Shown: positions 8,301 through 25,712, numbered from the stretch's first letter. The stretch: 25,712 bases of DNA from a virus (IMGVR_UViG_3300020413_000070:1-25712), one strand, 5' to 3'. The notes: generated by a model not told the origin, from the letters alone. A program made the numbers and translations.

Positions 8301-10808
8301 GCTCAAAGTAATGCTGCTCTTCGCGGAGATAACTTATACTTATCAATGTCAGATTCTGCAGTAGAATATATCAATCAAAATCTTGCAACTACTACAGAAA
8401 ATATTAATCCATTTGCAGTTATCAGATCTAATGGTCATATCGAATTATCACCTTCTACAGATACATGGGTAGAAACACAATTTGCTGCGTCTGAAGTTAA
8501 TGGCGGTGGAACTGTAACTCAAACAGTACCAACACAAATTCAGTTTGGAAGTTTAGCCTCTTTTAGAGATAACTGGATTGGTCAACCAACTGCATGGAAT
8601 GTTGGAGAAACATCAGTAGCAGCAGCTGGTAGAAGAAGAGATTTTTCTAGAACAAATACAAGAAGTGTTACAATTAGTGGAGGATTTGATACAGTAACTA
8701 CACAAGTTGGTGAAAGAGTATTAAGTGTTTCAATATTACCATTTATGAGATCAATTAAAGTATATTTTAGAGCTCAAGGTTTAAGAAGAAAAACAAGGCA
8801 CTTTCCATATTTTGGTAATTCATCAATTGATAACTTTACAAGACAAGAATCATTTGCTCGATATTCTACAAGAACAGATGCTGGCGCAGTAAGTGCTGGT
8901 GCCACTGCTCACCCAGATGGTTCAACAAATCTTACTTCTGATAGTAATGGAACTATTACGGGTTCATTTATTATTCCAAGCAATAATACATTACAGTTTA
9001 ATACGGGTACGCAACAATTTAAATTATTAGATATTAGTGGTGGTATAGATTCAAATTCTATATCTTCGGCCAATACATCTTTTACTGCGGCCGGTACATT
9101 AGAAACAAGACAAAGAATATTTACTTCAACACGTGTTGAAAGAGTTCAAACTATTGTTGAAGAAGCAACTTCGTCTTGGACAAATTGGGTTGATCCATTA
9201 GCTCAATCTTTCTTAGTTGATCCTATCGATAATCCAAATGGTGTATTCATAACTAAAGTAAAGATTTATTTTGCAACAAAAGATGATAATCATGGTGTGC
9301 CTGTTCAGTGTCAGATAAGACCAATGGAAAATGGAGTTCCTGTAAATCAACCTTTACCGCAAGCTGTTAAGTTTGTAGAACCTGCTAATGTTAATGCAAC
9401 CGCTTTAAGTGGTGCAACAATGGGTGGTGTACAAGGTGCGGGAACTGATTTTAAATTTGATGAACCAATTTACTTGGCTCCTGGTGAAGAATATGCGATT
9501 GTTCTTCTTGCAGAATCAACAGCTTATACAGTTTACGTGGCAGAAACTTATGAGTTTGTTGTTGGTACAACTGCACAAAGAATAGCTAAACAACCTACTC
9601 TCGGTTCATTGTTTTTATCACAAAATGGTTCAACATGGACACCTGAACAAAGTAAAGATTTAATGTTTACTTTATTTAGAGCAGATTTTAATACAAGCAG
9701 TTCAGCAATATTAAATAACGCTACTCCATCAACTGAAAAACTTGCAACTAACCCTATGCAAACTACTAGTGGTAATAATAATATAAGAGTATTTCATACA
9801 GGACATGGTTTTAACACAGGAGATAAAGTTACAATAAGTGGAGTAACTGATGCAATTGCAACTGTATCAGCTTCTATTATAAACGGAAATAGAACTATTT
9901 CAGAAGTAGATCATACAGGATATACCTTTACGGTTGGTTCTAATCCGAACGCAAACGTAAGAGGCGGAGGCGCGAATGTAGTTGTTACTGCTAATACTGT
10001 TTTAAATACATTTTTACCTCAAATTCGAAATTTACAAATACGAAATACTTCAATTACAGCTCAAGCTAAATTAACACTTGGAAGATCCTTTGGCGGAGCA
10101 CCTAATTCTTTAGGAAGTCAAACCAGTAGAACTAATGGTAGTCATGGATATTCAAAGGAAACCAGCTTTTCTGATATTATTTTAAATGAATTTAATTATA
10201 CAGATATGTCAAGATATATCCTTACAGATTCAAATGCAGCGCCGGCGCAACATCTAAGTGGTGCAAAGTCCGCAACTATTAAATTAAATTTGGCTACAAA
10301 TGATACAAAAGTTTCTCCTGTTATTGATTTACAAAGAGCAAACTTAGTTGGATTTGAAAATTTAATTGATAAACAACATTCAAGTACTAATGCCACTTTA
10401 GGCGTTAAACCTATATTAACTTCTTTTACTGATGAAATTGAACCTACTGATGGTACACACGCTGCTAAACATTTAACAAGACCGGTTAACTTAGAAGAGT
10501 CAGCAGTTGGATTAAAAATATTATTTGCGGCTAATAGACCTGCTGCTTGTGAATTTAAAGTTTATTTTAGAACAGCTACTTCAGATGAAGATTTATCTAC
10601 TCAAGCATTTATATTACAGCCAGAATTTAGTAATAATCCAGCTGATGATGATAATCAAACCTTTAGAGAATACGAATATCTACCAGGTGGACAAATTGGT
10701 AATTTAGATGCATTTACAAAATTTCAAATTAAGATTGTTATGAGATCAACAAATCAATCTAAGATACCAACATTAAAAGATCTTAGAGTGATTGCGATGG
10801 TGACATAA
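5337..10808 (+). CDS. vrlC: Large virion structural protein, VrlC-like (DUF4815)
   Basis: 1823 aa; YKDDF....NFHRILFNSGKALQARELTQMQTIIQ, LFDNQG..N...PGADRYRI, RTKEESGNY.V, KSGFLVDNF, DPLAQSF, GSLFLSQNGSTWT, and C-terminal FQIKIVM....P..KDLRVIA. Position after gp8 is typical of marine T4-like phages. Confidence 0.85.
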   Translation: MATNLSNVTFSNVYKDDFADSDNFHRILFNSGKALQARELTQMQTIIQKEIERFGSNIFRQGGAVTGGGLTIDNKVEFVNLATNQLPSTPSTLVGKYYKDSTNNLIIRIKEVLVANASTSDIAIGSGSAVNHNVDTLIIEYVSTSSGTAGSAPVRLQASNMLQRIVAANDSTLFNDAVNYPDMAVTAGHPSTGQNISGLGLKANIDKGSFFVQGHFVFCKAQTVTIQRFSPIPNTILGFQIAEQIINTDDDTSLFDNQGASPNLSSPGADRYRIQLTLTTKVLAGSNNFIYLANIVNGKLSDEVNLDNSYKQLQEVLALRTKEESGNYIVKRFDLNPSSITSTKVNYNISDGIAYVDGYRLDLDAKSVEVDRPTTTQEVDGELISTNLGNYVVVAGDHSSDSASLENNNIPDISNFQKLNLYAAFSAGQGTAGGNTADHAALVIGSARCRGLYRETTGRYRMHLFDVRMKVGQSFSFVRSIGRDQTNFMNVVLEGDQAVLKNTINNDLLFSLPKNRPQFDGITGSSMIVQRKFTFTTSAGLTSISGTNGGGLPAGCDAFFGGSSWVVSEVGEGIVEGAVCSVEAGNVTFAVTGLPVGSKTFNVLAQVQMSGSTSVAERTKTLKETTITRGATSDSDGRGFKFISLDKPDIFAIKSVKETDSNGVDISGNFELDNGQRDNYYGIGRLLPKKNVDMPAANVFVRYQYFEHEASVTGVGGQKCYFSATSYKNNSNAVGSLDGTGVTYETIPDYTKGNGQKVNLRDVLDFRPVGVLQHDFDSAGDTLKANGHHNITFDSNGPDVAGTVPLIHLLPQPGGTVQANVTYFLGRKDRLVASSSNLRGGRSATGSVDYIQGLPSFDPELPHLPNGAMPLYNINLGGNTINTKDITTEPYANKRFQMADIARLERRIDNLDEVTSLSLLELNTSTLNVVDSAGNSRVKSGFLVDNFRDYSFTDITNNQQRASIDPQAGYLTPLVISKVNRLLYDSDDAQSNAALRGDNLYLSMSDSAVEYINQNLATTTENINPFAVIRSNGHIELSPSTDTWVETQFAASEVNGGGTVTQTVPTQIQFGSLASFRDNWIGQPTAWNVGETSVAAAGRRRDFSRTNTRSVTISGGFDTVTTQVGERVLSVSILPFMRSIKVYFRAQGLRRKTRHFPYFGNSSIDNFTRQESFARYSTRTDAGAVSAGATAHPDGSTNLTSDSNGTITGSFIIPSNNTLQFNTGTQQFKLLDISGGIDSNSISSANTSFTAAGTLETRQRIFTSTRVERVQTIVEEATSSWTNWVDPLAQSFLVDPIDNPNGVFITKVKIYFATKDDNHGVPVQCQIRPMENGVPVNQPLPQAVKFVEPANVNATALSGATMGGVQGAGTDFKFDEPIYLAPGEEYAIVLLAESTAYTVYVAETYEFVVGTTAQRIAKQPTLGSLFLSQNGSTWTPEQSKDLMFTLFRADFNTSSSAILNNATPSTEKLATNPMQTTSGNNNIRVFHTGHGFNTGDKVTISGVTDAIATVSASIINGNRTISEVDHTGYTFTVGSNPNANVRGGGANVVVTANTVLNTFLPQIRNLQIRNTSITAQAKLTLGRSFGGAPNSLGSQTSRTNGSHGYSKETSFSDIILNEFNYTDMSRYILTDSNAAPAQHLSGAKSATIKLNLATNDTKVSPVIDLQRANLVGFENLIDKQHSSTNATLGVKPILTSFTDEIEPTDGTHAAKHLTRPVNLEESAVGLKILFAANRPAACEFKVYFRTATSDEDLSTQAFILQPEFSNNPADDDNQTFREYEYLPGGQIGNLDAFTKFQIKIVMRSTNQSKIPTLKDLRVIAMVT

Positions 10809-11032
10809 TGAGTGGTTATGTAAAAGTTGAAGGGCATTCATATCTTATGAGAGATGGTCAATCCGGAGCGATAATAAATACAAATATTAATGAAATGACA
10901 CAAGCGCGTATAAGAAAAGCTCAGCAGAAAAAACAACAAAATGAAATAAAAGAATTAAGAAGTGAACTTCAAGAAATGAAACAACTTTTAAATAAAATGA
11001 TAGAGGTTAATGATGGCCGTCACAACAGTTAA
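10808..11032 (+). CDS. Small conserved hypothetical protein with C-terminal coiled coil
   Basis: 74 aa, VKVEGH..L.RD..SGAIINT then heptad-like EIKELRSELQEMKQLL; coupled to the VrlC stop by TAATG. Similar small ORFs follow VrlC in T4-like marine phages (recollection). Confidence 0.75.
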   Translation: MSGYVKVEGHSYLMRDGQSGAIINTNINEMTQARIRKAQQKKQQNEIKELRSELQEMKQLLNKMIEVNDGRHNS

Positions 11033-11285
11033 TTTATCCGATACAATTTCACAATGGGTGACTAAAACAAATACTATATCGACTAATTTAGGTGACATAT
11101 CTACTTTAGCTACACCTGTAACAACTAATACTGTTGCGGCAATTAATTCGATTAAGACACGTGATTCGGCCGGTGTAAGAACAATAACAAATTTTACAAG
11201 TTTTAACTTTGATAATGTTGTAACGTTACAAATATTCGATTCATCAGGAAGTGTATTAAAAACGCTTAGAACTCCGGGGTCTTAA
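11013..11285 (+). CDS. Small putative virion protein (short trimeric-fibre-like N-terminus)
   Basis: SDTISQWVTKTN...LGDISTL....VAAIN resembles N-termini of phage fibre/whisker proteins. GAGG at 11003-11006 favours ATG 11013 over 11010. Contains RDSA and FDSS. Confidence 0.6.
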   Translation: MAVTTVNLSDTISQWVTKTNTISTNLGDISTLATPVTTNTVAAINSIKTRDSAGVRTITNFTSFNFDNVVTLQIFDSSGSVLKTLRTPGS

Positions 11286-12218: not shown

Positions 12219-12220
12219 AT

Positions 12221-13015
12221 ATGCAACCTGGTTATGAATTTGTTGAAGCGAGATTTATAGATGAAGATCACCTTAACGTAGCAGTTATGTGGAAAACACC
12301 AGAAGAACAACTTATAGAAGAAGTTATATCTTCAGATCCAACTCAATTACAATGGAATCAACTTATGAAACACACAACTGAGAAAGCTGTGTGGGATCGA
12401 ACTGCTGAATGGAAATTAGAAGAAAAGAAAAAGTTTGATGCGTATATCAGACCCGCAGTTGATGCTGAAGTTGAAAAAAGAGTTCAAGCAGAAATAGCTC
12501 TTAGAGAAAAAAAAGTTAAAGAAGAAGTATCTCATAGATTAGTTGAAAAATATCCTGTTTTAGTTGATGAGTTAAATACAAAAAGGTCTGAAGTAACAAA
12601 TTTAGTAAGATTAGTTAAAGGAAAAGATGGAGAAATAGATAATTTAGTAACAAGCGTTAACTTAAAAGAAGGTGAAGTTCAGGTTTTAGCAAGAGATAAT
12701 AAAATTCTTGTAGAAGATATTGAAAGAATAAATTTAAATATGAAAGAATTTATTGATAAGCCTTTTACTGTAGCTGCTTCTGACAAATTCCAAAAAGAAT
12801 TTGAAGCTATTAAACAACAATTAAAACAGGATATGATTATAACTCCTGAAAAATTATTTCAATTACTTATTGAAAATAACGAAAATGAAGAATATCTATT
12901 TAAATTTAAGTTAGAGGCTTTCAAATTAGATCATATTAAAAATACTAAATCTAAAAAAATAAAAACAGATATAAGAAAAGCAAAAACTCTTATCGAATTG
13001 TTTAAATTAATATAA
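12221..13015 (+). CDS. Hypothetical charged protein with a long central coiled coil
   Basis: 264 aa, E/K-rich with heptad periodicity over roughly residues 60-205; stop overlaps the first glycosyltransferase start (TAATG). Confidence 0.7.
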   Translation: MQPGYEFVEARFIDEDHLNVAVMWKTPEEQLIEEVISSDPTQLQWNQLMKHTTEKAVWDRTAEWKLEEKKKFDAYIRPAVDAEVEKRVQAEIALREKKVKEEVSHRLVEKYPVLVDELNTKRSEVTNLVRLVKGKDGEIDNLVTSVNLKEGEVQVLARDNKILVEDIERINLNMKEFIDKPFTVAASDKFQKEFEAIKQQLKQDMIITPEKLFQLLIENNENEEYLFKFKLEAFKLDHIKNTKSKKIKTDIRKAKTLIELFKLI

Positions 13016-13656
13016 TGAATATAATATTTGTTAAATGGGGTACTAAGTACTCGAGTGATCACGTTATCAATTTATATAATTCTTTAAAGAATTACGATTA
13101 TCCAAATCACTACTATTATTGTTACACAGATAGAGATGCAGATGTTTTAATTAATGCTGGTCTTAGGACAGTTCCTATTCCAGAAAAACCATCGTTAAAA
13201 AAATGGTGGAATAAGCTTAAAATGTTTGATAAAGATTTTCCATTAGTTGGAAAAAATTTATATTTTGATTTAGATATTAAAATAAACTCTGATCCTTTTG
13301 ATATAATTAAGCAAATTAATTGGAATAAACTAACGGTGATTGATTGTCACTGGAAAAAATCTAATCTATATAAAAGATTGTCTAATTACGATGTTGATAT
13401 AAATTCATCAATGCTAGCGTGGCATTCTAAATCAACTAGTGTGCATGAAATGTGGGATCATTTTTATAACTCTGGTTATAAAGATTATTTCTTAAGAAAA
13501 TACGTTGGAATAGATCGCTATATAGTACATGAAGATTTTGAATATAATACATTTCCACATGACTTTATACAATCATATAAATATGAACCAGATAAAAAAG
13601 CACCAGTAACAACATTTGAAGAGGTAAAATTTGAAGGAACAAATTCTATATCGTAG
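13015..13656 (+). CDS. GT-A fold glycosyltransferase-like protein
   Basis: VKWGTKYS...V..LY, YCYTD, WWNKL.MF, DxD motif (LYFDLDI) and NSSML.W; pattern of GT8-related phage glycosyltransferases. Confidence 0.8.
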   Translation: MNIIFVKWGTKYSSDHVINLYNSLKNYDYPNHYYYCYTDRDADVLINAGLRTVPIPEKPSLKKWWNKLKMFDKDFPLVGKNLYFDLDIKINSDPFDIIKQINWNKLTVIDCHWKKSNLYKRLSNYDVDINSSMLAWHSKSTSVHEMWDHFYNSGYKDYFLRKYVGIDRYIVHEDFEYNTFPHDFIQSYKYEPDKKAPVTTFEEVKFEGTNSIS

Positions 13657-14263
13657 TCTTAAGATTATAGAAGAAATATATGATGAATCACAATATGGTG
13701 TAGATGATTTATATCGTATAAAAGATATTGTACATTCGTTAGATGACAATCATTGGAATAGTAAGCAATGGCTTGTTGATACATTAACGCCTATTCATAA
13801 AAAATTATTTCCAAATAATTGTAAAATGTATATTGCCGGTGGCTGGTATGGATTACTTGGTCATCTTTTACGTGATAGATTTAGCGATAATCATATCGTC
13901 TGTGGGGATATAGATCCTATGACAGAACACTATGGTCATAAATTATTTTATGATAGAGATATAGAATTTAAAATTGAAAATTGTTTACAGTCAAAAGATT
14001 TAGACGCTAATATAATTATTAATACTAGTTGCGAACATATTGATAAAGATGATCTTGCAGACTTTATACAAATGAAAAATAAAGAATCTTTAATAGTATT
14101 ACAAACTAATGATTATTATGAGTTAGATTCTCATATCAATTGTTCGAATACACTAGAAGAATTTTGTGAGTTTGTTGAACCTCTATTATCAAAGAAATGG
14201 ATTGTATCTAAAGCATCTTTAGATTTAGGTGACTTTAGTAGATATATGGTAATAGGTCAATGA
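13631..14263 (+). CDS. Class I SAM-dependent methyltransferase-like protein
   Basis: TTG start with GAGG upstream (13621); SKQWL, glycine-rich motif I (IAGGWYG), acidic motif II (GDIDP), IINTSCEH, VLQTND, HINC and C-terminal RYMVIG. Confidence 0.75.
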   Translation: MKEQILYRSLKIIEEIYDESQYGVDDLYRIKDIVHSLDDNHWNSKQWLVDTLTPIHKKLFPNNCKMYIAGGWYGLLGHLLRDRFSDNHIVCGDIDPMTEHYGHKLFYDRDIEFKIENCLQSKDLDANIIINTSCEHIDKDDLADFIQMKNKESLIVLQTNDYYELDSHINCSNTLEEFCEFVEPLLSKKWIVSKASLDLGDFSRYMVIGQ

Positions 14264-15114
14264 ATATAATTTATAGCATATACATCGATATTGAAGATGA
14301 TAATTTAGATAATCCTGGTTGGTGGGAAAATGGTGTACAAATAAAAACAAATAAAAGTTTAGAAACTAAACTGGCATTTAAAAGAAACTATGATAAATTA
14401 AATCAAGTTAAAAAAGATTATGCAGAATCAATAGGAGCTGACTATATTTTATTTGAAAATGATAGTCAATATAAAGAATATTTTAAATCATTTCAAAAAA
14501 AATATTCACAGATATCTGAGTACGATGTTATAAATTTTTATAAGCAATGGTTAATGAAAGAAATGGCGTTAGAATATGATAATGTATGTTATTTAGATTT
14601 TGACGTTATACCAAATACAAAAGATGATATATTTAAAGCACATAAAATAGATACGCACTTTGCTTGTGCTGAAAATAATTCTTTAGCATTGTGGGGAAAG
14701 GTAGTAAATGCAAATAGATATAATACGTGTATTCGAAATCCTGCATCAAAATATTGGAATTGTCATGCAATGTTATTTGAAAAAGGATTAGAACCAGAAA
14801 CCGATGTTTTTAATACTGCTATTATGATTGCATCAAATAAAATTATAAATCAATTAAATTATTTTGGTGATTTTGATAAGACTTTAGATTTAATGACTTA
14901 TGTAAAAAATGATAAAGATTCTATATATCCTCACAATATTAAAAGAGTTTTTGGATATGATAACGAAACTGTATTTGCTTACAGAAGAGTAGTTAATGAA
15001 ATAAAAATAGATTATATTACCGATGATTGGCACTGGAGAGTTGATTCGGATATATGGAAAGAAGACGCAAAAATGTTTCATGTCATGAATAAAAAGTTTG
15101 GTTTATTTTTATGA
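14260..15114 (+). CDS. GT-A fold glycosyltransferase-like protein (GT8/GT34-like)
   Basis: YAESIGADY, DxD motif (VCYLDFDVI), FNTAIM, YDNETVF and a C-terminal W...MFHV.NK; ATGA overlap with the upstream gene. Confidence 0.75.
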   Translation: MNIIYSIYIDIEDDNLDNPGWWENGVQIKTNKSLETKLAFKRNYDKLNQVKKDYAESIGADYILFENDSQYKEYFKSFQKKYSQISEYDVINFYKQWLMKEMALEYDNVCYLDFDVIPNTKDDIFKAHKIDTHFACAENNSLALWGKVVNANRYNTCIRNPASKYWNCHAMLFEKGLEPETDVFNTAIMIASNKIINQLNYFGDFDKTLDLMTYVKNDKDSIYPHNIKRVFGYDNETVFAYRRVVNEIKIDYITDDWHWRVDSDIWKEDAKMFHVMNKKFGLFL

Positions 15115-15749
15115 AAATATATTGTGTAAGTATAGGTGAAAAATACGGACCAGAGTTTGAGAAATATTTAGAAAATAAACTCGGTAAAATAATTTGGATA
15201 CGAGATCAAATAGCCTCTAACGTTCCATTACAATGGAATAAAATGTACCCAATGTCTTTAAGTGATACTGAACCTGTTTGTGTAATTGATTTAGATATTG
15301 TTTTAGAAAATGATTACATGGATTTATTTAATTATCCAATAGAAAGAGGTGAGTTTTTATCAATTCACGGTTGGTGGAGAGATGCGCCGGGTTATACATT
15401 AAATGGCGGATTTTTTAAATACTATCCGATTGACTGTAACTACATATATGAAAAGTTTATGTCTGATATTGAAAAATGGAAAGTACATTATATTAAAAAT
15501 AAAACTACAATCGGTCCAGTAAACGGCGAACAATATTTTGTAGAAGATAGTGTTAATGAAAAATTAAAATTAAAACTTGTGCCTGCAAGTTGGGTTACAA
15601 GATGGAAAAACGATTACAGTCATATATGGTTTGAAGAATTAACAAAGAAATATATAGATGTATCAGGAGAAGATTATCTTAAAAAAGATGATTGGAATCC
15701 TAATATAAAACTAGTTCATTATAATCACACATTAAATAAACCACAATGA
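15111..15749 (+). CDS. GT-A fold glycosyltransferase-like protein, paralogous to 13015..13656
   Basis: CVSIGEKYG, QWNKM, DxD motif (VIDLDIV), NGGFFKY, GEQYFV and C-terminal LVHY; ATGA overlap. Confidence 0.78.
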   Translation: MKIYCVSIGEKYGPEFEKYLENKLGKIIWIRDQIASNVPLQWNKMYPMSLSDTEPVCVIDLDIVLENDYMDLFNYPIERGEFLSIHGWWRDAPGYTLNGGFFKYYPIDCNYIYEKFMSDIEKWKVHYIKNKTTIGPVNGEQYFVEDSVNEKLKLKLVPASWVTRWKNDYSHIWFEELTKKYIDVSGEDYLKKDDWNPNIKLVHYNHTLNKPQ

Positions 15750-16951
15750 AATGTTTAGTACCAGATACTGGAATTACAATTAATCCGATAGGAGAGCTTG
15801 TATTATGCTGTGCAGCTGATCATGTTCCTATTGGTCATATTAAAGATATAGACGACGTTTCTGATTTTTTTAATTCAAAAGTCTATAATGATTTAAGAAA
15901 AAAATTTAAATTAAAAGAATTTCCTGATCAATGCGATGTATGTAAAGTTCATTATAATGCAGGAAGAATAGCAAGATTTGATTCTTATAATAAATTTAGT
16001 TTTCCTACATATGAGCAAGATATTTCTAGTAAAACAATACCTATACGTTATTTAGAAATTACTACAAGTAATATTTGTAATCAAATGTGTGTTACTTGTT
16101 CTGGTAAATATTCATCTAAATGGGCTCCATACGAACAGCATGCTATTGATGTTGGATTAAATTGGAGAAATGAAAACCATAAGTTTCATACAGAAATTTA
16201 TAAAATGACTGATAATGATGTTGATAAGATTTTAAAAATAGTTCCACACTTACAACATTTAACAATAAAAGGTGGTGAACCTTTTGCTGATCATAATAAT
16301 ATAAAGATACTAAAATTGTTAGGAGAAACAAATCCTAAGTGTCGTGTAGAGATATGCACTAACTTTCAATTGGTAACTAATACAGTTATTGATTTACTGC
16401 ATAAAATAGAAGATGTTCATATACAAGCAAGCATCGATGGAACTTATGCATTATATGATTGGATTCGTGGCGGTAATTTTGAAAAAACAATCAACAATAT
16501 TAATAGATATCACGCAGTAGAAGGAAGACACGTTATTCCGGTTATATGCATATCAATATATAATTGGATGAACATTGTTGAGCTGCTAGATTTTTTTAAA
16601 ACTGTAAAGGGTACTCCAAGTATTGATCTTGCAAATTTAGTAACGTTTCCAAAGTATTGTTCACCGCTATATTTGTATCCTCGACACATAAAAGAAGGCC
16701 TTGATAAATTTTATAATTATTTAAAAGGTTATAAAAAAATTCACGATACAATTTATGGATGGAAAGATGCAGAAAACCGGTTAGTAATAAGTGGCATCAA
16801 TAATATTAAAAGTGTAAAATATACAGAAGATTTTTTAGGAAATGATGTTATACAAAAACGCATGATTGATTGGATAGATTTTTGTTTAATTGCTCGTCAA
16901 AACAATGAAGACATATATGAATTAGCTCCGTATTTAAAAGAATATAAATGA
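15746..16951 (+). CDS. Radical SAM protein with N-terminal twitch/SPASM-like domain
   Basis: CNQMCVTC (CxxxCxxC), KGGEPF, SIDG...YDWIRG; N-terminal C...INPIGELVLCC...CDVC. Confidence 0.9.
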   Translation: MKCLVPDTGITINPIGELVLCCAADHVPIGHIKDIDDVSDFFNSKVYNDLRKKFKLKEFPDQCDVCKVHYNAGRIARFDSYNKFSFPTYEQDISSKTIPIRYLEITTSNICNQMCVTCSGKYSSKWAPYEQHAIDVGLNWRNENHKFHTEIYKMTDNDVDKILKIVPHLQHLTIKGGEPFADHNNIKILKLLGETNPKCRVEICTNFQLVTNTVIDLLHKIEDVHIQASIDGTYALYDWIRGGNFEKTINNINRYHAVEGRHVIPVICISIYNWMNIVELLDFFKTVKGTPSIDLANLVTFPKYCSPLYLYPRHIKEGLDKFYNYLKGYKKIHDTIYGWKDAENRLVISGINNIKSVKYTEDFLGNDVIQKRMIDWIDFCLIARQNNEDIYELAPYLKEYK

Positions 16952-18096
16952 ATGAAGCAAAAAAAATAGCTAAATACCGAAAGTATTTAAATGATAGTGA
17001 AAAACAAATAACTTGTTATGCTCCTTTCACCTCGATGCATATCAATATGCATGGAGTAATGAAGCCATGTCCTTTTTCATTTAAAGGGGTGCAAAAGAAG
17101 TTTAAACGATGGACACCAGAACATTCAATAAAAGATTTTTTTAACGAAGAAGAATATGAGAATTTGAGAAATGCCATGATAGAAGGCACATTAACAGATG
17201 CGTGTATTTATTGTAAAAATTCTATTAAAGAAGATAAACCTCCTAGTAGCTTAGATTTTGATTGGGTTGGTGGTAAAAGAAATATTAACAATATTACTCC
17301 AAAAGAAATAGAAATTGAATTATCTAATAGTTGTAATTATATGTGTTTAGGATGCGGTCCAACGCATTCAACACAACATGTAAAAAATATGGGTTTAGAA
17401 AAAGATTCAAGATATATAAGTAAATTTGATGCAAACTCTGAATATTATGATAAAATTATAATTGATTTAAAAGAAATAATTCATGACTTACATCGAATTA
17501 ATTTTACTGGTGGTGAACCATTTGCACAAAAAATTGTATATGATATTTTAAAAATGATAGAAAAAGAAAAACCAAAAGATTTAAAAATTCATTTTACAAC
17601 AAACGGAAGTGTTATGAATGGAGCTGTAAAAAGATTAGCTCAAAAAGAAAATACTCGTTTTACAATATCATTAGATTCTATTAACCCAAAGATTTATCCT
17701 ATAGTGAGAGTAAATGGCAATTTAAAAAATGTAATGAATAATATTAATTATCTATTAAAACAAAAAGCAGAACTTGGTTGTTCTTTTGTTATAAGCAAAT
17801 ACAACGTAAGAGAATTACCTGATATTGTTTCATGGTGTAACGAAAGATTTATTGAATTTTCTTATCATATTATTAATGAAATGGGACGTGGATGGGATCC
17901 AATTCTTCCTATAGCAGTTGAATTTGAAACTCAAGAATATAAAAAAGAATTAAAAAATTATCTACAAAATAAAATAGATGATATAAAGTTTGTAGAAGTA
18001 AAAGATTTTATAACAAACCAAGAAAAATATAACAAATGGTATGTACAACGTAAAAATTTAAATATGTTTAAACAATATATTGAAAGAATACAATAA
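16948..18096 (+). CDS. Radical SAM protein with N-terminal twitch/SPASM-like domain
   Basis: CNYMCLGC, TGGEPF, TTNGS, ISLDS....Y..VR; N-terminal CYAPF.SMHIN.HG.MKPC...CIYC. Confidence 0.9.
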   Translation: MNEAKKIAKYRKYLNDSEKQITCYAPFTSMHINMHGVMKPCPFSFKGVQKKFKRWTPEHSIKDFFNEEEYENLRNAMIEGTLTDACIYCKNSIKEDKPPSSLDFDWVGGKRNINNITPKEIEIELSNSCNYMCLGCGPTHSTQHVKNMGLEKDSRYISKFDANSEYYDKIIIDLKEIIHDLHRINFTGGEPFAQKIVYDILKMIEKEKPKDLKIHFTTNGSVMNGAVKRLAQKENTRFTISLDSINPKIYPIVRVNGNLKNVMNNINYLLKQKAELGCSFVISKYNVRELPDIVSWCNERFIEFSYHIINEMGRGWDPILPIAVEFETQEYKKELKNYLQNKIDDIKFVEVKDFITNQEKYNKWYVQRKNLNMFKQYIERIQ

Positions 18097-19406
18097 TGTC
18101 AAGTCCTAGATATATTTATATACATAAAAAATTAACTCAAAAAGTTAATCCAGAATCTTTGATAATTTCTAATAAAAAAAGAACTATTCCAGAAAATCAA
18201 AAATACATTAGCTGTTTTGCACCCTTTAATCATCTTAGAATTAATAGATCAGGTGAAGTATCACCGTGTTGTTTTTCTACACATAGAGAAAGATGGAAAA
18301 GAGGCAGTGTTAGTTTACGTGAAATTTGGTTTAAAGGTATTATTACCAAATATCAAGAACAAATGATTAATGAAAAATTACATTCAGGTTGTACTATATG
18401 CATTAATAAAATTAATCGAAATATTACTCCGCATATTCCAGATTATGATTGGAATGATAATGATAGAATGAGAAGCACACTTAATATAACCTATCCTAAA
18501 ATACTCGATATCGAATTATCTAATTTATGCAATTTAGAATGTCCTATGTGTTTTGGTTTTTTATCATCTAAGCATGCTATGAATCGAGATAAATTTTATA
18601 ATGAAAAAGCTGGTAAAGAATTACAAGGTAAAAAAAAGAATTGGGGTGTAAATAGATTTGATAGCGATAAAAACCTAAATGCATTTATCGAAGAGTTAAA
18701 AGAATTTATACCACATTGTAAAGAAATGCGTTTTGCAGGAGGCGAACCTTTTGCACATAAAGCTATGTATAAAATAGCAAAAGTAGTTGCAGAAATTAAT
18801 CCAGAAGTTAGATTAGAAATATGTACAAATGGAACTGTATATAATAAAAATGTTGAAAAAATCATAAAAGAAAATAATGTTTCTTTCTCATTTTCTATCG
18901 ATACTGTAATACCAGAAGAATATAATTCTATTCGTGTTGGTGCTGAATACGAAAAAACATTTCAAAACATTGAAAAAATATCTCAATTAACAACACCAGA
19001 AAATATAACAATATCTACTGTTTTAATGAGTAAGAATTGCAAAAACTTTATAAAATTTTTTAAATGGGGTTATGACAGAAAATATAAAATATTTGTTAAT
19101 ACGTACGATCTTCATGGAAGAAAAAGATGGATACCTGATTGGAGTTTATCTTTAGTAGATAAAGAAGTAAAAGACAATGTCATTAGCCAATGTGTGCATT
19201 GGTTAAACAAAATTAAAATAAAAGAAGAAGATTACAAATCAGACAATTTGTTTGAAAATAGAGATTTAGCCAAAAAATTAGCTGCTATTAAAATTTATAA
19301 TAATAATTATGAAAATCAACTTAAAAAAGTAATATTTTTATTAAAAGAAAACACTAGTCAAGAATTAATTGACATATCAGAAGAAGAAAACTGGACATAT
19401 ACTTGA
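18096..19406 (+). CDS. Radical SAM protein with N-terminal twitch/SPASM-like domain
   Basis: CNLECPMC, AGGEPF, CTNGT, FSIDT....Y..IR; N-terminal CFAPFNHLRINRSGEVSPCC...CTIC. Confidence 0.9.
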   Translation: MSSPRYIYIHKKLTQKVNPESLIISNKKRTIPENQKYISCFAPFNHLRINRSGEVSPCCFSTHRERWKRGSVSLREIWFKGIITKYQEQMINEKLHSGCTICINKINRNITPHIPDYDWNDNDRMRSTLNITYPKILDIELSNLCNLECPMCFGFLSSKHAMNRDKFYNEKAGKELQGKKKNWGVNRFDSDKNLNAFIEELKEFIPHCKEMRFAGGEPFAHKAMYKIAKVVAEINPEVRLEICTNGTVYNKNVEKIIKENNVSFSFSIDTVIPEEYNSIRVGAEYEKTFQNIEKISQLTTPENITISTVLMSKNCKNFIKFFKWGYDRKYKIFVNTYDLHGRKRWIPDWSLSLVDKEVKDNVISQCVHWLNKIKIKEEDYKSDNLFENRDLAKKLAAIKIYNNNYENQLKKVIFLLKENTSQELIDISEEENWTYT

Positions 19407-20089
19407 TGACTAGGCATTTTCATGGAAAAGAAAATAGAGATCTTATAAAGCATAAACATTTTGTATACGAACAAGATGGTGTTTATCATAAAAAAATTAC
19501 TAAATTTAGGACGCGTCATTGGTTTAATGATCCAGTTCGTGGTAAATCATATGCAGAAAATAAGTGGTTTAAAACTTATAAGAAAAGATTTAATGATCAT
19601 CCTAATTTTGTATCTTTATTACACATTGATTTTGATGACAAATATTATAAAATGAGTAAAATTGATTACGTTTGTACATTATATGAAAGATTAGATAATT
19701 TACTAGTAAATCAAGCAGCAAAAAAATATTCTAAAAATAAGAACAAATATTTAGACAATGAAAAAGAATGTATACAAAAAATATTTAATCAATATAAAAT
19801 TATTGTAAATCATATTCTTTCGTTTAACGATAACTTTTTACATATCGATATATGGGGTTATCAAAACGTACTGGTTGATAAAAATGATAATTTATTCTTA
19901 ATCGATCCAGATGGATTTACACATTTAAACACAAAGCACACACACTGGGCAAAATATAAGATGTATAAAAACCTAGCAGATATCAAAAGAATAGAACTTT
20001 TCATTATAAATAAAGATATTAATATCTCTTGGGAAAGAATTAGATACGGTTATTTGTCAGATAGTTGTAAAATACCTGCATCTAGTTAA
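19406..20089 (+). CDS. Protein-kinase-like fold phosphotransferase (APH/RIO/Kdo-WaaP-like)
   Basis: HPNFV, catalytic-loop-like FLHIDIWGYQNVLVD and metal-binding LIDPD. ATG at 19406 overlaps the upstream TGA (TGATG), preferred over TTG 19403. Confidence 0.65.
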   Translation: MTRHFHGKENRDLIKHKHFVYEQDGVYHKKITKFRTRHWFNDPVRGKSYAENKWFKTYKKRFNDHPNFVSLLHIDFDDKYYKMSKIDYVCTLYERLDNLLVNQAAKKYSKNKNKYLDNEKECIQKIFNQYKIIVNHILSFNDNFLHIDIWGYQNVLVDKNDNLFLIDPDGFTHLNTKHTHWAKYKMYKNLADIKRIELFIINKDINISWERIRYGYLSDSCKIPASS

Positions 20090-20134: not shown

Positions 20135-20497
20135 ATGGCTCGGTACGAAGAATTTACTATAGATAAAGGTTCAGATATTTCAATTAGATTGGAATTAACT
20201 GATGCTGGTGGAGCTAAGAAAAACTTAACTGATCATTCTTTAAGAGCCAGAATAAAGAAGAATTATAATGACAGTGCAGGAGAAGCTGTTGAATTTTTTA
20301 CAGCAATACCTCTTGCAACTCAAACTGATGGAGTAGTAACTTTAGGATTAACGCATAGCCAAACTAAAGGGATGAAAGCAGGAAGATACGTGTTTGATGC
20401 TGAGCTAAATCATATTGCTGCAGGTGGTCTTCGAATAAAGGAACGTGTTTTAGAAGGTGTCATTACTGTTACTCCTTCTGTAATGGATTCGGCATAG
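20135..20497 (+). CDS. BppU-like small virion adaptor protein
   Basis: 120 aa, IDKGSD....L.....NLT.....I.......F......G.VTL.LT..QT..MK.GRYVFD.E....RVLEG.ITVTP, the pattern of BppU-N-like fibre-attachment domains; directly precedes the fibre genes. Confidence 0.65.
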   Translation: MARYEEFTIDKGSDISIRLELTDAGGAKKNLTDHSLRARIKKNYNDSAGEAVEFFTAIPLATQTDGVVTLGLTHSQTKGMKAGRYVFDAELNHIAAGGLRIKERVLEGVITVTPSVMDSA

Positions 20498-20506
20498 GAG
20501 AAATAA

Positions 20507-22936
20507 ATGGCGACAATCGTAAATACAATCACTCAATCCACCCCGAGCTCATCACCGGCTGAGGGTCAAGAAAAGAAAAATTTCGATTCGTCAAGAATAG
20601 ACTTTTTATCAAGCTCATTTGCAAACATTGATTCCGGAAGATATACAAATCTTCATGTTGATTCAGGGCATATTAATATATTAACAGCTAATAGTATTAG
20701 TTTTACTGGATTAAACGTAGACTCTGGTAATATTACCACATTATCAACAACGACTTTAAATCCTGCTACTATTAATGCTACAACAATTAACGGTGATTCT
20801 GGTAACTATACAAACCTTACGGCAGTTAATTTAACTGCTACTAATTTAAATATTAGTAATGGTACTACACTTTCTTTTGCAGGTATCTTTACAAATTTAA
20901 CGGCCGACTCAGCCAATATTACAAATATCACATCTAATACTTTAAAAAGAACTCCTCCTGCCGGTGTTACACCTGGTAAATACGGTCAAATGGGAGGTAA
21001 TAGTAAATTATCTAAAGCACCAATCATAACAGTTGATTCTTCTGGATTTATTAATATCACAGATCAAGGTGCTGTTGCTGGTGTTGCAAGTACTGCTTTT
21101 GATAGTGCTAGTTTTAACTTTAGTATTAATACTACTGATAGTGGAAGTACGCCAGTAGTTAAAATGGCTCATACAAGAAAGCCTGGTTTAGAGGCAAGTG
21201 CAAGTTTTTACGGAACAGCATCAAAAGTTCCAACAATTAAAATAAATGAATACGGTCATGTTGATAGTATTGCTTTAGTCGATATTGCAGGAATTAGTGG
21301 TACAAATTGGGATTCTGCTAATTCAACATTTCAAATTACTCAAACAGATGGTACTACAGTAAGTGAAGTTATTAATGGTTGGGGTGACAACCAAAAAATA
21401 TATTTCGGTGCTGGACAAGATTTAGAAATATATCATGATACGTCAAACAGTGTTATTAGAGATGGTGGAACTGGTAGTTTAATTATTGCTGGTGATACAA
21501 TTCAAATAATGAATGCAGCACAAACAGAAACAATGGGTTTGTTTCAACAAGATGCTGCTACTTCAATACATTATAATAATGATCCTAAATTATTAACAAC
21601 CGCAACAGGTGTTCAAGTAAGTGGTACCGCAGTAACAACTGCTGGGATTACTGCAGGTAGTCATATCTTACCGGCAACTGATGGCGACGTTGATCTTGGA
21701 TCTTCTACAAAGAAATTTAGAGATTTACATTTAAGTGGTTCAACTCTTAAAATTGGAACTATACAATTTAAAGACAGCGCATCCGGATTAAGAGTAGAAA
21801 AGATTACTGGCAATGAAGTAGTTCCAATTGTTTTTAGAGAGCTTGAAGTTGATTCTGCCACAGTATCAGGGAATATAACTGCCGGTACTTTTACAGGTGA
21901 CGGTAATGCTCTTACTAATTTTAATGCAGCTCAAATTAGAACGCACATGTCTGCAGGAACCGGTGTTGGATTTGCAAGTGGCGTTATATCGATTGGCCAA
22001 GCAGTAGGTACAGGTAATGACGTACAATTTAAAGATCTTTTATTAACTGGAGATTTAACAGTTCAAGGTACTACAACAACCATTAGTAGTGCAACAATGG
22101 ATGTTACAGATAAAAATATCACTATAGCAAAAGGTGCTGCTGATGCTTCAGCCGCAGACGGTGGTGGTATAAACATTGAAGGTGCTGGTGCTAACTTTAC
22201 TTACACAAGTAGTAATGATAGATGGAATATGAATAAAGCCCTTGTGGTTTCAATGGTACACGGCAACGTAACTGGTACTGTAACTGATATTAGTAATCAC
22301 AGTACTGATACTCTTTCAGAAGGTTCTACAAATCTATATTTTACACAAGGTAGAGCAAGACAATCTATTAGCGGCGACAAAGGTTTAACTTATAACTCTG
22401 GCGCCGGAATAATGGATGTTGATTCATCAAATATTATAGAATTTACAAGAGCTTCTTTAGGAGGCGATAAAGGTTTAACTTATAATACCACAACCGGTGT
22501 CATGGATGTTGATTCTGCTAACGTCAAAGAAATGTTTACCGGTGCAAATAACATAGTTTATAATAATTCCACTGGACAAATTCGTACAAATATAACAAGT
22601 GCAGATCTATCAACAGATAGTTCTTATTTAACTGCCACATCATCTAATCAACTAATATCATCGATATCAGCATTAACTCACAGAAGCGTAAAGTTTTTAG
22701 TACAAGTTCGTGTAGATGCCGGTGGTGAAAAAGTTCAAACTTCGGAAATAAATGTTATACATCAAGGTGGTAATGCGTTTATGACTGAATACGGTAGAGT
22801 AGGTAATACTGACGATAATTTGGCTACATATGATGCAGATATAAATTCAAACAATTTAAGATTGTTGGTGACTCCAGCAAATGCAAATACTGAATTTAAA
22901 GTATTTAAAACGGCAGTCAAAATTAATACAACTTAA
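20507..22936 (+). CDS. Tail fibre / fibre-like virion protein
   Basis: 809 aa, T/S/G/N-rich with phage fibre modules (FGAGQDLEIYHD, ILPATDGDVDLGSSTKKFRDLHL, GDLTVQGTTTT, TDTLSEGSTNLYFT..RAR, GDKGLTYN repeats); GGAG RBS upstream. Confidence 0.8.
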   Translation: MATIVNTITQSTPSSSPAEGQEKKNFDSSRIDFLSSSFANIDSGRYTNLHVDSGHINILTANSISFTGLNVDSGNITTLSTTTLNPATINATTINGDSGNYTNLTAVNLTATNLNISNGTTLSFAGIFTNLTADSANITNITSNTLKRTPPAGVTPGKYGQMGGNSKLSKAPIITVDSSGFINITDQGAVAGVASTAFDSASFNFSINTTDSGSTPVVKMAHTRKPGLEASASFYGTASKVPTIKINEYGHVDSIALVDIAGISGTNWDSANSTFQITQTDGTTVSEVINGWGDNQKIYFGAGQDLEIYHDTSNSVIRDGGTGSLIIAGDTIQIMNAAQTETMGLFQQDAATSIHYNNDPKLLTTATGVQVSGTAVTTAGITAGSHILPATDGDVDLGSSTKKFRDLHLSGSTLKIGTIQFKDSASGLRVEKITGNEVVPIVFRELEVDSATVSGNITAGTFTGDGNALTNFNAAQIRTHMSAGTGVGFASGVISIGQAVGTGNDVQFKDLLLTGDLTVQGTTTTISSATMDVTDKNITIAKGAADASAADGGGINIEGAGANFTYTSSNDRWNMNKALVVSMVHGNVTGTVTDISNHSTDTLSEGSTNLYFTQGRARQSISGDKGLTYNSGAGIMDVDSSNIIEFTRASLGGDKGLTYNTTTGVMDVDSANVKEMFTGANNIVYNNSTGQIRTNITSADLSTDSSYLTATSSNQLISSISALTHRSVKFLVQVRVDAGGEKVQTSEINVIHQGGNAFMTEYGRVGNTDDNLATYDADINSNNLRLLVTPANANTEFKVFKTAVKINTT

Positions 22937-23770
22937 TAACGGCAGTTAAAATTACAGGATAAATCATATGCCTATTAGAAAAATAACGTTACAAAGAGCG
23001 GCTTCTGATAAACCGCAGCTGGGTGCAGATTATATTGATTCAAGCTTTGCACTAGACTCGGCAGAAGCAATTCAGCTACTAGGATTTAATCCAACACTTG
23101 GTAATAGTTTTGTCGACTCTGCAGAAGCTAAAAAACTTATTGAAGGAGATAAAGGTTTAACTTATAATACTGGTACCGGTGTTATGAGTATTGATTCTGC
23201 AAACATCAAAGAAATGTTTGAAGGTGACAAAGGTTTAGTTTATAATAATTCTACCGGTGTTTTTAATTTAGATTCAGCAAACGTTATTAGTTTTACTCGA
23301 GAATCGATATCTGGTGATAAAGGTTTAGTTTATAACAATGCTACTGGTGTATTTAATCTTGATTCAGCAAACGTTAAATCAATCTTTGGAACAGATAACA
23401 AAGGTTTAGTTTATAGTAATGGTACATTTAATGTTGACTCAGCAAATATAAAAAGTTTTACGGTTGCTGATGCGATTAATGATGGCACTACTACTATTGC
23501 GCCTTCACAAAATGCGGTGTTTGATGCACTAGCTCTTAAAGCAAATACGGCTGCAATACCAACTCTTGGTGGAAGTTTTGTAGACTCGGCTGAAGCGAGA
23601 AAACTAATTTCAGGTGATAAAGGGTTAACGTATAATAACGCAACTGGTGTCATGGATCTTGACTCTGCTAATGTCACAGAAGTTGCTAGAGCAAGTATTA
23701 TATCACATAATAAAGGAATAACATATAATAATACTAGTGGTGTTATTCAAGTCGACTCTTCAAATATCAA
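22373..23770 (+). repeat. Degenerate ~25-30-codon coding repeat GDKGLxYNxxTGVxx(V/L/I)DS(A/S)N shared by both fibre genes
   Basis: Two full copies at the end of the 809-aa gene and six in the next gene. 22466-22537 vs 23148-23219 match at 62/72 nt, with the first 23 nt identical. Confidence 0.9.
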
Positions 23771-25712
23771 CATTATAGCCGATGCAAGAATAACTACGGC
23801 TTTAGCTGGCAATATTATCATTGGTGGTACCTTAACAGTTAACGGTACTACAACTACTGTTAATTCAAATACTGTTAATATTGGTGATAATATAATTGTA
23901 TTGAATTCTGATGAAACTGGAGCTGCTTCACAAGACGCCGGAATTGAAATAGAAAGAGGTACTGACGCTAACGTTCTATTGAAATATGATGAAAGTTTAA
24001 ATAGATGGCGTTTTACTAATGATGGTACAACTTATCAAGATCTCGGAGCGGGTACCGGTGATATTACTGGTGTTGACATTACTGCAGGTACTGGATTAAC
24101 TGGCACGTTAAGTACAACTTCAGGTGATCATACACAAACAATTAATGTTGATGTTGGTACAAGCGCAAGTAAGATTGTACAGCTAGATGGTTCTGCTAAA
24201 TTGCCGGCAGTTGATGGATCAGCTTTAACTAATTTACCAGGAGGTTCTTTTGTTGGTTTATCAGATACTCCTGCAAACTTTACCGGTGCTGCAACTAAAA
24301 TAGTAAGAGTTAATGCCGCCGGAAATGCATTAGAATATTTATCTGATACTACATTAGTTGATGCTGATTTTTCTTCTGCTGGTTTAATGAAAACAGATGG
24401 TGCTGGTAATTATTCATTAGTTACTGATGCTAGCGCCAATTGGAATACCGCTTTTGGTTGGGGTAATCATGCGAGTGCTGGATATTTAACATCACAAACA
24501 TCTCATGCTGATGTTCTAGTTGATGGTGATTTTTCATCAGCAGGTATTATGACAACAAATGGTTCTGGCACTTATACAGTAATTACTGATGCTAGTTCAA
24601 ATTGGAATACTGCGTTTGGCTGGGGTAATCATGCTAGCGCTGGCTATCTTACTGGCACTTTACCAACTTTAGGTGGAAGTTTTGTAGACTCGGCTGAAGC
24701 TGCTAAAATACCAGAAACAGAATTTAGTGTTACAACAGCAAATGGCGGTGTATACAAATTTACTGGTGATGGTTTTCCTACACAATCTGGTGATAATCCA
24801 CCAATCTTTTTTACTCGTGGTAAAAAATATGTTATAAACAATTCTTCTCATTCAGGACATCCACTTTATATTAAAACAACTGCAGGTGCTGGAACTGGAA
24901 ATCAATATTCATCCGGAGTAACTGGACAAGGAACTGTTAAGGTTACTTTTGAAGTTCCGATGGACGCACCTAAAGTATTATACTACCAATGTTCTGCTCA
25001 CACAGCGATGTATGGTCCGATTTATATATTAAATGATACATTTGGTCCTGATTCTTCTGGAGTTAATACATTAGCAGATGCTAGAATTGCTGCTGCTTCA
25101 ATTAACGCTTTATCAGACGTAAATACTGCAGGTATATCAAGTGGCCAAGTTTTAAAATATAACGGATCACAATTTGTAGCTGGTAACGATTCGAGCACAA
25201 TTGGTATTCAATTCGCAGATTCAAATGGAACATTAGCAACATCCGGCACGTTAGTAACTTTTACTGGAACCGGTGTTACTGTTTCTGGATCAGGCGCAAG
25301 TAAGACCGTTAATATTACAGGTGGAGGTGGAGGAGGAGGCGGATCTCTTAACAATATTGTTGAGGATACCACACCACAATTAGGCGGAAATTTAGATGTA
25401 AATGGCCAAAAAATAACTAGTGTTTCAGGTGGTAATATTGATATTGAACCAAATGGAACAGGTGACGTATTACTTGGTAATTTCAGATTTGATGCCGATC
25501 AGAGCGTTGGTTCTGGTCAAGACAACCACGTTTTAACTTATGATAATTCAACCGGAAAAATAAGTTTAGAAGCATCTGCAGGCGGCGGTGGTGGAAGTGC
25601 TATTACAATACAAGAAGAAGGATCCTCGTTATCAACTGCAGCATCTACAATTAATTTTGTTGGAGCAGGAATAACTGCTAGTGGAACAGGTTCAACAAAA
25701 ACAATTACAGTT
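22968..25712 (+). CDS. Long modular tail fibre protein, 3'-truncated by the window edge (absent from the supplied ORF track)
   Basis: My translation from ATG 22968 (AGGA upstream) is open for 915 codons to the window end: MPIRKITLQRAASDKPQLGADYIDSSFALDSAEA...; contains GDKGLxYN repeats, GTLTVNGTTTTVNS, two NWNTAFGWGNHASAGYLT copies, a cupredoxin-like domain, DTTPQLGGNLDVNG and poly-Gly linkers. Confidence 0.9.
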   Translation, partial: MPIRKITLQRAASDKPQLGADYIDSSFALDSAEAIQLLGFNPTLGNSFVDSAEAKKLIEGDKGLTYNTGTGVMSIDSANIKEMFEGDKGLVYNNSTGVFNLDSANVISFTRESISGDKGLVYNNATGVFNLDSANVKSIFGTDNKGLVYSNGTFNVDSANIKSFTVADAINDGTTTIAPSQNAVFDALALKANTAAIPTLGGSFVDSAEARKLISGDKGLTYNNATGVMDLDSANVTEVARASIISHNKGITYNNTSGVIQVDSSNINIIADARITTALAGNIIIGGTLTVNGTTTTVNSNTVNIGDNIIVLNSDETGAASQDAGIEIERGTDANVLLKYDESLNRWRFTNDGTTYQDLGAGTGDITGVDITAGTGLTGTLSTTSGDHTQTINVDVGTSASKIVQLDGSAKLPAVDGSALTNLPGGSFVGLSDTPANFTGAATKIVRVNAAGNALEYLSDTTLVDADFSSAGLMKTDGAGNYSLVTDASANWNTAFGWGNHASAGYLTSQTSHADVLVDGDFSSAGIMTTNGSGTYTVITDASSNWNTAFGWGNHASAGYLTGTLPTLGGSFVDSAEAAKIPETEFSVTTANGGVYKFTGDGFPTQSGDNPPIFFTRGKKYVINNSSHSGHPLYIKTTAGAGTGNQYSSGVTGQGTVKVTFEVPMDAPKVLYYQCSAHTAMYGPIYILNDTFGPDSSGVNTLADARIAAASINALSDVNTAGISSGQVLKYNGSQFVAGNDSSTIGIQFADSNGTLATSGTLVTFTGTGVTVSGSGASKTVNITGGGGGGGGSLNNIVEDTTPQLGGNLDVNGQKITSVSGGNIDIEPNGTGDVLLGNFRFDADQSVGSGQDNHVLTYDNSTGKISLEASAGGGGGSAITIQEEGSSLSTAASTINFVGAGITASGTGSTKTITV
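23568..24700 (+). repeat. Exact 29-nt direct repeat GGTGGAAGTTTTGTAGACTCGGCTGAAGC (23568-23596 and 24672-24700)
   Basis: Encodes part of PTLGGSFVDSAEA; a diverged third copy (PTLGNSFVDSAEA) starts at 23091. Confidence 0.92.
24354..24653 (+). repeat. Tandem coding duplication with a 162-nt (54-aa) period
   Basis: LVDxDFSSAGxMxTxGxGxYxxxTDASxNWNTAFGWGNHASAGYLT at 24354-24491 and 24516-24653. Confidence 0.9.
24717..25030 (+). other. Cupredoxin-like (type-1 copper) domain inside the fibre ORF
   Basis: NPPIFFTRGKKYVI...SGHPLYI...APKVLYYQCSAHTAMYGPIYI gives His631, Cys675, His678 and Met681 of the ORF starting at 22968. Confidence 0.8.

Follow-up and report, generated by a model that had tools for sequence, protein, structure and literature searches.

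Asp-Ser-small motifs on the outer particle proteins of uncultured T4-like phages: a candidate glycosylation tag and a Maf-like protein as its possible writer

In staphylococci, the serine beside aspartate in Ser-Asp repeats is a cytoplasmic acceptor for SdgA and SdgB, and the cytoplasm is also the compartment in which the virion proteins of T4-like phages assemble. Phage particles are generally described as unglycosylated, with a few exceptions among actinobacteriophages (PMC11256854), such as Che8 and Rita, in which phage-encoded glycosyltransferases (GTs) add glycans to particle proteins (Freeman et al. 2023, cited in PMC11256854). Maf enzymes attach ulosonic acids, Kdo (keto-deoxyoctulosonate) included, directly to serine or threonine, and can use cytidine monophosphate (CMP)-Kdo in E. 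coli (bioRxiv 10.1101/2020.06.03.131540). The O-glycosylation system of Bacteroidota reads the sequon D-(S/T)-(L/I/V/T/A/S/M), does not accept glutamate in place of aspartate, and is a lipid-linked system acting on non-cytoplasmic proteins (PMC12871550). For marine phage proteins, one study reports phosphorylation and acetylation and not modification of Asp-Ser (DS) sites (PMC12014285), and our literature search, outside which most subscription journals lie, returned no report of a DS motif or a Maf-like enzyme on phage particles. Here we analyze IMGVR_UViG_3300020413_000070:1-25712, a virus record of 25.7 kb (25,712 nucleotides, hereafter the window) that covers the baseplate-to-fibre region of an uncultured marine T4-like phage. 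Its outer particle proteins are rich in DS followed by a small residue, and related phages carry a gene for a Maf-like protein of about 200 amino acids (aa) that we regard as the candidate writer of this motif.

The phage motif resembles the Bacteroidota sequon in that aspartate precedes serine, glutamate does not take its place (ES 8 vs 14.7 expected in the outer proteins of the window) and alanine or serine can follow. It differs in that threonine is not enriched, in that only Ala and Ser overlap at the third residue, with Val and Ile under-used, and in that the substrates are T4-like virion proteins. Whereas SdgA and SdgB act on long SD tracts, the phage sites are dispersed single DS dipeptides and SD is not enriched. 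Actinobacteriophages likewise encode GTs, with the major capsid protein as their cited target (PMC11256854), for which we saw no sequon reported; here, in contrast, a short motif is scattered across numerous outer proteins in phages from aquatic habitats. The phage protein is predicted to be alike in fold to Maf (5mu5; PF01973 MptE-like/DUF115) and to the GT42 enzymes CstII and CstI, and the spacing of three of its invariant residues is close to that of essential residues in a Maf. Unlike the Maf 5mu5 chain of 632 residues, however, it is a stand-alone protein of about 200 aa without a Pfam match in the members scanned, and its substrate would be many virion proteins; Mafs have no known sequon (PMC11339370).

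The motif was noticed by an earlier note on this DNA in two tail fibres (all features given here are on the plus strand). Fibre 1 (809 aa, 20507..22936), with a PHROG tail fibre match at residues 292-398 (E 8e-17), has 16 DS, 15 of them followed by Ala, Ser or Gly; fibre 2 (22968..25712), whose open reading frame (ORF) runs past the window end and codes for at least 915 aa, has 14 DS, 13 of this form. The counts on which the earlier note relied were all recovered on recounting: serine follows 11 of the 14 aspartates in the first 270 aa of fibre 1; the two fibres together contain 30 DS, with Ala, Ser or Gly next in 28 and a hydrophobic residue (V/L/I/F/W) before 22; 5 of the 16 DS serine codons of fibre 1 are AGY; and the eight enzyme ORFs of the window (2366 aa) contain 11 DS and not one DSA, DSS or DSG. 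Against composition-preserving shuffles (1000 per protein set, 2000 for the de-replicated fibres), the fibres have 30 DS vs 11.8 expected and 28 DS[ASG] vs 3.7, neither value being reached by any of 1000 shuffles. As the earlier note had claimed, the motif extends beyond the tandem repeats: the 30 sites reduce to 17 distinct contexts, and after removal of repeat copies the excess persists, with DS 21 vs 10.0 (p 0.0005) and DS[ASG] 19 vs 3.2 (0 of 2000 shuffles). The signal is both ordered and residue-specific, DS being in excess and SD (5 vs 11.8), DT (7 vs 14.3), ES (2 vs 4.2) and NS (13 vs 14.7) not. The sites are unevenly spread, the first 270 aa holding 11 of 16 in fibre 1 and 10 of 14 in fibre 2. 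In fibre 1, the DS-dense N-terminal part (20585..21316) has 11 sites, several in a short-period beta-repeat and others in unrelated contexts; in fibre 2, a cluster of ten sites (23037-23759) lies for the most part within tandem repeats.

The motif is not restricted to the tail fibres, in which the earlier note had described it: seven non-fibre outer proteins of the window have DS 37 vs 18.9 and DSA 11 vs 1.5. These include the gp7-like baseplate wedge protein (2301..3347; DS 6 vs 2.3), the gp9/gp10-like connector (3380..3871; 4 vs 1.4), the gp8 baseplate wedge protein (3882..5324; 8 vs 2.8) and the 1823-aa DUF4815/VrlC-like virion protein (5337..10808; 14 vs 9.8, weak by itself with p 0.11), as well as a 91-aa protein (11010..11285) with one DSA and one DSS and a 120-aa L-shaped-fibre assembly-like protein (20135..20497) with two DSA, one of which is its C-terminus. 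Across the outer proteins DS is the top dipeptide (67 vs about 30.7 expected), and DT stands at 21 vs 36.2, with SD, ES and NS not enriched either; proteins were sorted into outer and inner ones by T4 architecture, once the per-protein counts were known. The baseplate protein gp6 (449..2299), an internal control, has DS 2 vs 4.3; gp25 and gp6 together have 2 vs 4.8, and the eight enzymes 11 vs 9.1.

The enrichment of DS-(Ala/Asp/Ser/Gly) on outer particle proteins is a real trait of a large uncultured clade of T4-like phages. DS exceeds expectation in every one of the 120 gp8 homologues listed (41-99% identical), with a total of 771 vs 379 (DT 225 vs 362), and in these homologues DS recurs at a few columns with variable neighbours. 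Of the gp8 copies in 79 IMG/VR loci, with identities as low as 32%, 76 carry at least five DS (total 587 vs 259 over the 79), and gp6 under-uses DS in 39 copies from the same set (84 vs 154 expected); the gp8 and gp6 copies are kin and not independent events, and the gp8 tree of these loci is a quick tree. Proteins rich in DS in five long records (G001-G005) represent many unrelated folds and are for the most part fibres, gp7, gp8, gp9-like proteins, the neck proteins gp14 and gp15, and the major capsid protein. Over 506 distinct DS sites, the third residue is Ala at 3.7 times, Asp at 2.5 times and Ser at 1.8 times expectation, with Thr, Val and Ile at 0.4 times. Four cultured T4-like outgroups show no DS excess (observed/expected: HTVC008M 56/50.0, Mosig 41/45.2, Melnitz 53/48.6, S-PM2 73/76.6). 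By estimate, about 3900 stored stretches match the gp8 patterns of the clade, these being pieces and not species.

A second lineage with the motif is represented by DSL-LC06, a metagenome-assembled phage of 29.8 kb with tape-measure and distal-tail genes (siphovirus type), assigned to an orphan group (PMC10611076). A homologue of the Maf-like gene sits immediately before its structural block, just upstream of the fibre genes. With the motifs predefined on the window, the virion proteins of DSL-LC06 have DSA 11 vs 2.0 and DS[ASG] 19 vs 6.4, and its other proteins DSA 0 vs 0.5; the longer form DSAG was noticed in the small-phage data and not predicted. Through the enzyme, 22 loci related to DSL-LC06 were found, 18 of them offering 1000 aa or more of protein rich in S/T/G/A/N, and 16 of these 18 have at least two DSAG (in total 61 vs 2.2 expected). 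In 80 loci found through a tail protein free of DSAG, this form makes up 117 of 574 distinct DS contexts. The gene is present in 20 of these 80 loci and was found in two more on whole-record search, most of the others ending before its site; in three incomplete records among them, the whole-record search gave no match to it. A 140-aa tail protein has DSAG in two variable loops, of which one is an insertion, and none of its seven homologues from gene-free phages contains DSAG. DS is not in excess in eight small phages that lack the gene; these controls come from other families, since the small-phage family yielded no member without it. A direct search with a single Maf-like protein returned no relatives of DSL-LC06. 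The enzyme subfamilies of the T4-like and the small phages are homologous (hhalign 99.8% over 181 columns).

In the T4-like phages, the Maf-like gene lies outside the region covered by the window, in a second glycan-gene cluster upstream of gp32 that was found by comparing long records. The core order in most of 81 loci is GT25, GT25, GT8-like and the 200-aa Maf-like gene, with a GT8-like gene in 80 and GT25 in 77 of the 81 T4-clade loci; matches to GT25, GT8-like and GT9 families in G001-G003 indicate several phage-encoded GTs. For the members scanned, the Maf-like protein has no Pfam match, PF01973 included; PF01973 is assigned to 13% of members of a neighbouring Atlas cluster (score 0.92), and a PDB sequence search with the enzyme profile gave nothing meaningful. 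A structure model (predicted local distance difference test (pLDDT) 84) best matches Maf 5mu5 (Z 10.9, root-mean-square deviation (rmsd) 3.8, 167 residues aligned) and the Campylobacter sialyltransferase 2p56 (Z 10.4, rmsd 4.9, 188 aligned). The top Foldseek rows are CstII, at E 1.5e-3, short of E 0.001. The match to 5mu5 involves only residues 271-508 of its 632, and the phage proteins (about 175-220 aa) are without the N- and C-terminal flagellin-binding domains of Maf. The invariant residues D46, C107 (Ser in other subfamilies) and D130 lie 84 and 23 positions apart, and D272, S334 and D357 of CbMaf 85 and 23, a likeness of spacing only. An arginine pocket that appears in the alignment to be shared by the two motif-linked subfamilies was set aside, the arginines being present also in other subfamilies.

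The phage of the window probably has this gene as well, because G011, its nearest relative, carries the Maf-like gene (L186:1872-2522) together with the cassette of the window, at 92-94% identity in the parts compared, and with fibres that are 89% identical, the orthologue of fibre 1 having 16 DS. Among 28 records picked by gp8, the gene is in 4, and the remaining 24 are 8-61% complete, two of them ending within about 3 kb of gp32. Conversely, 15 of 23 records picked by the Maf-like gene reach gp8, and 14 of these 15 have at least five DS in gp8 (97 vs 42.4). In 50,697 annotated phage records, tblastn finds the gene in C48C1 and DSL-LC06 only, and it finds none in the four T4-like outgroups and the eight small phages. 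Apparent cellular homologues were discarded: the six genome_contigs matches are all metagenome bins labelled as bacteria (L399-L404), and these labels do not give the host, because L402, the only bin inspected, is a stretch of T4-like phage with gp32.

On this evidence, a modification sequon is the best reading of the excess. The parallel with Bacteroidota that the earlier note had drawn is only partial, threonine being not enriched here and the substrates there being non-cytoplasmic. That DS-(Ala/Asp/Ser/Gly) is a tag whose serine is O-glycosylated in the host cytoplasm by a phage enzyme, most likely the Maf-like protein, appears to us to have slightly better than even chances. In the mechanism that we propose, the Maf-like protein would be the first transferase and would place an acidic sugar on the serine of D-S-small sites, presumed to be exposed, during assembly. 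The donor could be a host CMP-ulosonate, possibly CMP-Kdo: NeuB and the CMP-sugar synthetase CTP_transf_3 were found in none of five records, two of them complete, so that a CMP-ulosonate donor would need to be supplied by the host. The GT8-like and GT25 enzymes of the operon might then extend the glycan, the variable cassette of the window may decorate it, and the coat could shield or disguise the particle. For the whole of this sequence of events, whose chemical steps are conjectural, we would put the chances at about even. We also entertain, with more doubt, the possibility that sequon-directed virion glycosylation is portable: a minimal Maf-like transferase would read Asp-Ser-small in the cytoplasm and prime it with a host ulosonate, possibly Kdo, enzymes of the lipopolysaccharide (LPS)-core type would build an LPS-like coat, and unrelated families of myoviruses and siphoviruses would each have gained the enzyme and written the tag. 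If these proposals are true, a tag of three or four residues directs the coating of particles in a large clade of uncultured aquatic T4-like phages and in a small-phage family unrelated to them, which would matter for how marine viruses decay, are grazed and choose their hosts; the enzyme would then be an O-glycosyltransferase of one domain, cytoplasmic and with a defined sequon, unlike known Mafs (PMC11339370).

Several observations weigh against this interpretation. C48C1 carries the gene, at 37% identity (E 2e-40), but the DS count of its virion proteins is 77 vs 71.9 expected; DS[ADSG], at 39 vs 25.1, is a weak signal that comes mostly from one repeat protein, and four other genes lie between its GT8-like and Maf-like genes. 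In two small-phage loci (L231, L232), the gene is present and DSAG is absent. Six records with two more distant subfamilies of the enzyme show no clear DS excess (95/86.7, 31/34.1, 47/30.3, 35/32.3, 15/21.1 and 61/54.4), the 47/30.3 case, the highest, lying in collagen-like proteins, and the notion that every Maf-like homologue predicts the motif was abandoned on these six; the survey of distant homologues counted 46 of 48 loci, most of them, L296-L304 likewise, with too little virion sequence. The two subfamilies linked to the motif do not come out as resolved sisters, and motif-free HTVC008M weakly matches the N-terminal half of the Maf-like family. Moreover, gene and motif are each clade-wide, and their association amounts to two independent co-occurrences, not hundreds. 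A gene-free control, MW202879, has DSAG 2 vs 0.27. In an AlphaFold model of gp8 (pLDDT 84), two of the eight DS serines lie in a predicted strand, the other six being in loops or at a helix start. The fold is common also to SteA (Z 9.7) and the archaeal pyrophosphokinase HPPK 8sd5 (Z 9.3), both within about 1.5 Z of the best match, and known Mafs have no sequon (PMC11339370). Another acceptor motif may apply in the T4-like records G037 and G038 (L457-L460), which have a distant Maf-like gene and GT-looking ORFs among their tail genes, and whose long collagen-like fibres are rich in Gln-Gly (QG 902 vs 274 expected).

The tag could be real and its writer or chemistry different: a GT8-like or GT25 enzyme might start the glycan and the Maf-like protein cap it, or the Maf-fold protein might transfer a phosphoryl or pyrophosphoryl group. 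The near-constant presence of GT8-like and GT25 genes in the T4-clade loci speaks for such an arrangement, as do the established action of GT42 and GT29 enzymes of the Maf/CstII fold on sugars, the sharing of this fold by TPK/MptE kinases, and the occurrence of the Maf-like gene without the motif. We consider it unlikely, however, given that HTVC008M, which lacks the motif, has the GT8-like gene as well, for which reason that gene was dropped as a marker of the motif, and that DSL-LC06 has the motif, yet none of the four scanned genes adjoining its Maf-like gene matches GT25 or GT8 (one matches GT9); the kinase-like ORF of the window, for its part, is missing from two complete motif-bearing genomes. 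A still smaller probability attaches to a host enzyme or surface factor, for instance of the Bacteroidota D-S/T type, as the reader of the motif, with the glycan genes of the phages directed at host LPS or phage DNA. The Bacteroidota sequon does open with Asp-Ser/Thr (PMC12871550), the operon families GT8, GT25 and GT9 are LPS-core enzymes, and both phage families could share a host group. That system, however, is described in the same paper as exclusively non-cytoplasmic and as disfavouring Gly at the third place, whereas D-S-A-G is the form preferred in the small phages, virion assembly is cytoplasmic and threonine is not enriched; furthermore, the small-phage gene lies directly upstream of the fibre genes. 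We therefore regard this explanation as improbable.

The remaining explanation requires no enzyme: Asp-Ser could cap helices or turns, or bind Ca2+ or Mg2+, and so stabilize exposed parts in seawater. Many fibre sites look, by their sequence, like helix N-caps (hydrophobic-D-S-A-N/E-hydrophobic), and the gp8 sites recur at fixed columns, one of them at a helix start in the model. In the fibres, however, the position of DS relative to a YNxxTG repeat shifts: DS comes after the motif in 6 of the 8 window copies vs 1 of 17 copies in G001-G005, where 5 of 14 displayed copies have DS within the motif instead. In the 1568-aa repeat protein of C48C1 (L011:22804-27510), the N-terminal repeats have DS, and DG, DA or GS stand at those places towards the C-terminus, a gradient that may record either loss or spread of the tag. 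A fixed structural role is disfavoured because the placement in YNxxTG repeats shifts, the C48C1 repeats have other residues in place of DS in their late copies and the same parts are made by the outgroups in its absence. The earlier note had held that conservation of the serine in all homologous fibres would tell against a sequon; the serine in fact varies among homologous repeats and in the homologues of other phages. Identical repeats function without DS, marine outgroups have the same proteins without the motif, DT and SD are not enriched, gp6 under-uses DS, and in the 140-aa tail protein of the small phages DSAG is inserted in variable loops, the protein's other homologues being without it. 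We accordingly think it quite probable that the motif is read by something rather than structural, and consider a structural or ion-binding habit rather unlikely, somewhat more so than a different writer of the tag but not as improbable as a host reader.

The modification sequon that we favour does not appear to involve the enzymes encoded within the window. The earlier note had set the motif beside the eight ORFs of the variable cassette (13015..20089; GT8-like paralogues, a GT-like protein, radical SAM proteins and others), and the implied link is not supported, the cassette not tracking the motif. Its GT families are present in the motif-free pelagiphage Mosig, its members are patchy in motif-rich records, and it is exchanged among close relatives, a different cassette standing in phages whose gp8 is 97% identical; the cassette is thus probably not the writer. 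A 213-aa GT is matched in two of five motif-rich records (family grouping by BLAST adds G003 and G004, not the 87%-complete G002), and a 284-aa GT in three of five. Two paralogous GT8-like proteins start at 13015 and 15111, GT8-like features being seen for the former. They are accompanied by a methyltransferase-like ORF (start 13631), a DxD-bearing GT-like ORF (start 14260) and a 228-aa kinase-like ORF (19403-20089, with HxDxxxxN and DxD), three labels which we take from motifs recognized by eye, without a library match. The kinase-like ORF occurs in only one of five records, the closest relative. Three N-terminal-twitch radical SAM proteins (starts 15746, 16948 and 18096; span 15746-19406) stand in tandem, with NF033640 scores of 190, 160 and 162 vs a cut-off of 170, one thus above it; their closest relatives in annotated phages, KVP40-like vibriophages, are just 22-24% identical. 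A comparison of the window (11286-20089) with L002, L005 and L007 shows that 310-aa and 264-aa proteins and the enzymes behind them are exchanged as one unit between phages whose gp8 is 85-97% identical, resembling a serotype cassette, and a related block is present in Mosig.

Overall, the window contains gp25, gp6, gp7-like, gp9/10-like and gp8 genes, the DUF4815 protein, the enzyme cassette and the two fibres. The nearest annotated phage record is C48C1 (gp6 44% identical), followed by pelagiphages and cyanophages at about 30-37%. Two window proteins finish on the motif, that encoded at 20135-20497 with D-S-A-stop and that at 2301-3347 with D-S-A-Y-stop (one each). In loci L218-L239 of the small phages, the Maf-like gene is flanked by a conserved gene of 110-155 aa downstream and usually by one of about 300 aa upstream, with no convincing Pfam match; a KpsC label for the upstream neighbour in DSL-LC06 was rejected, Pfam giving no support. 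An extreme case of DS accumulation is a 1257-aa fibre fragment (L073:17573-21346) with 50 DS, most of them in a T-H-D-S-A-A-V repeat, in a record whose gp8 has only three.

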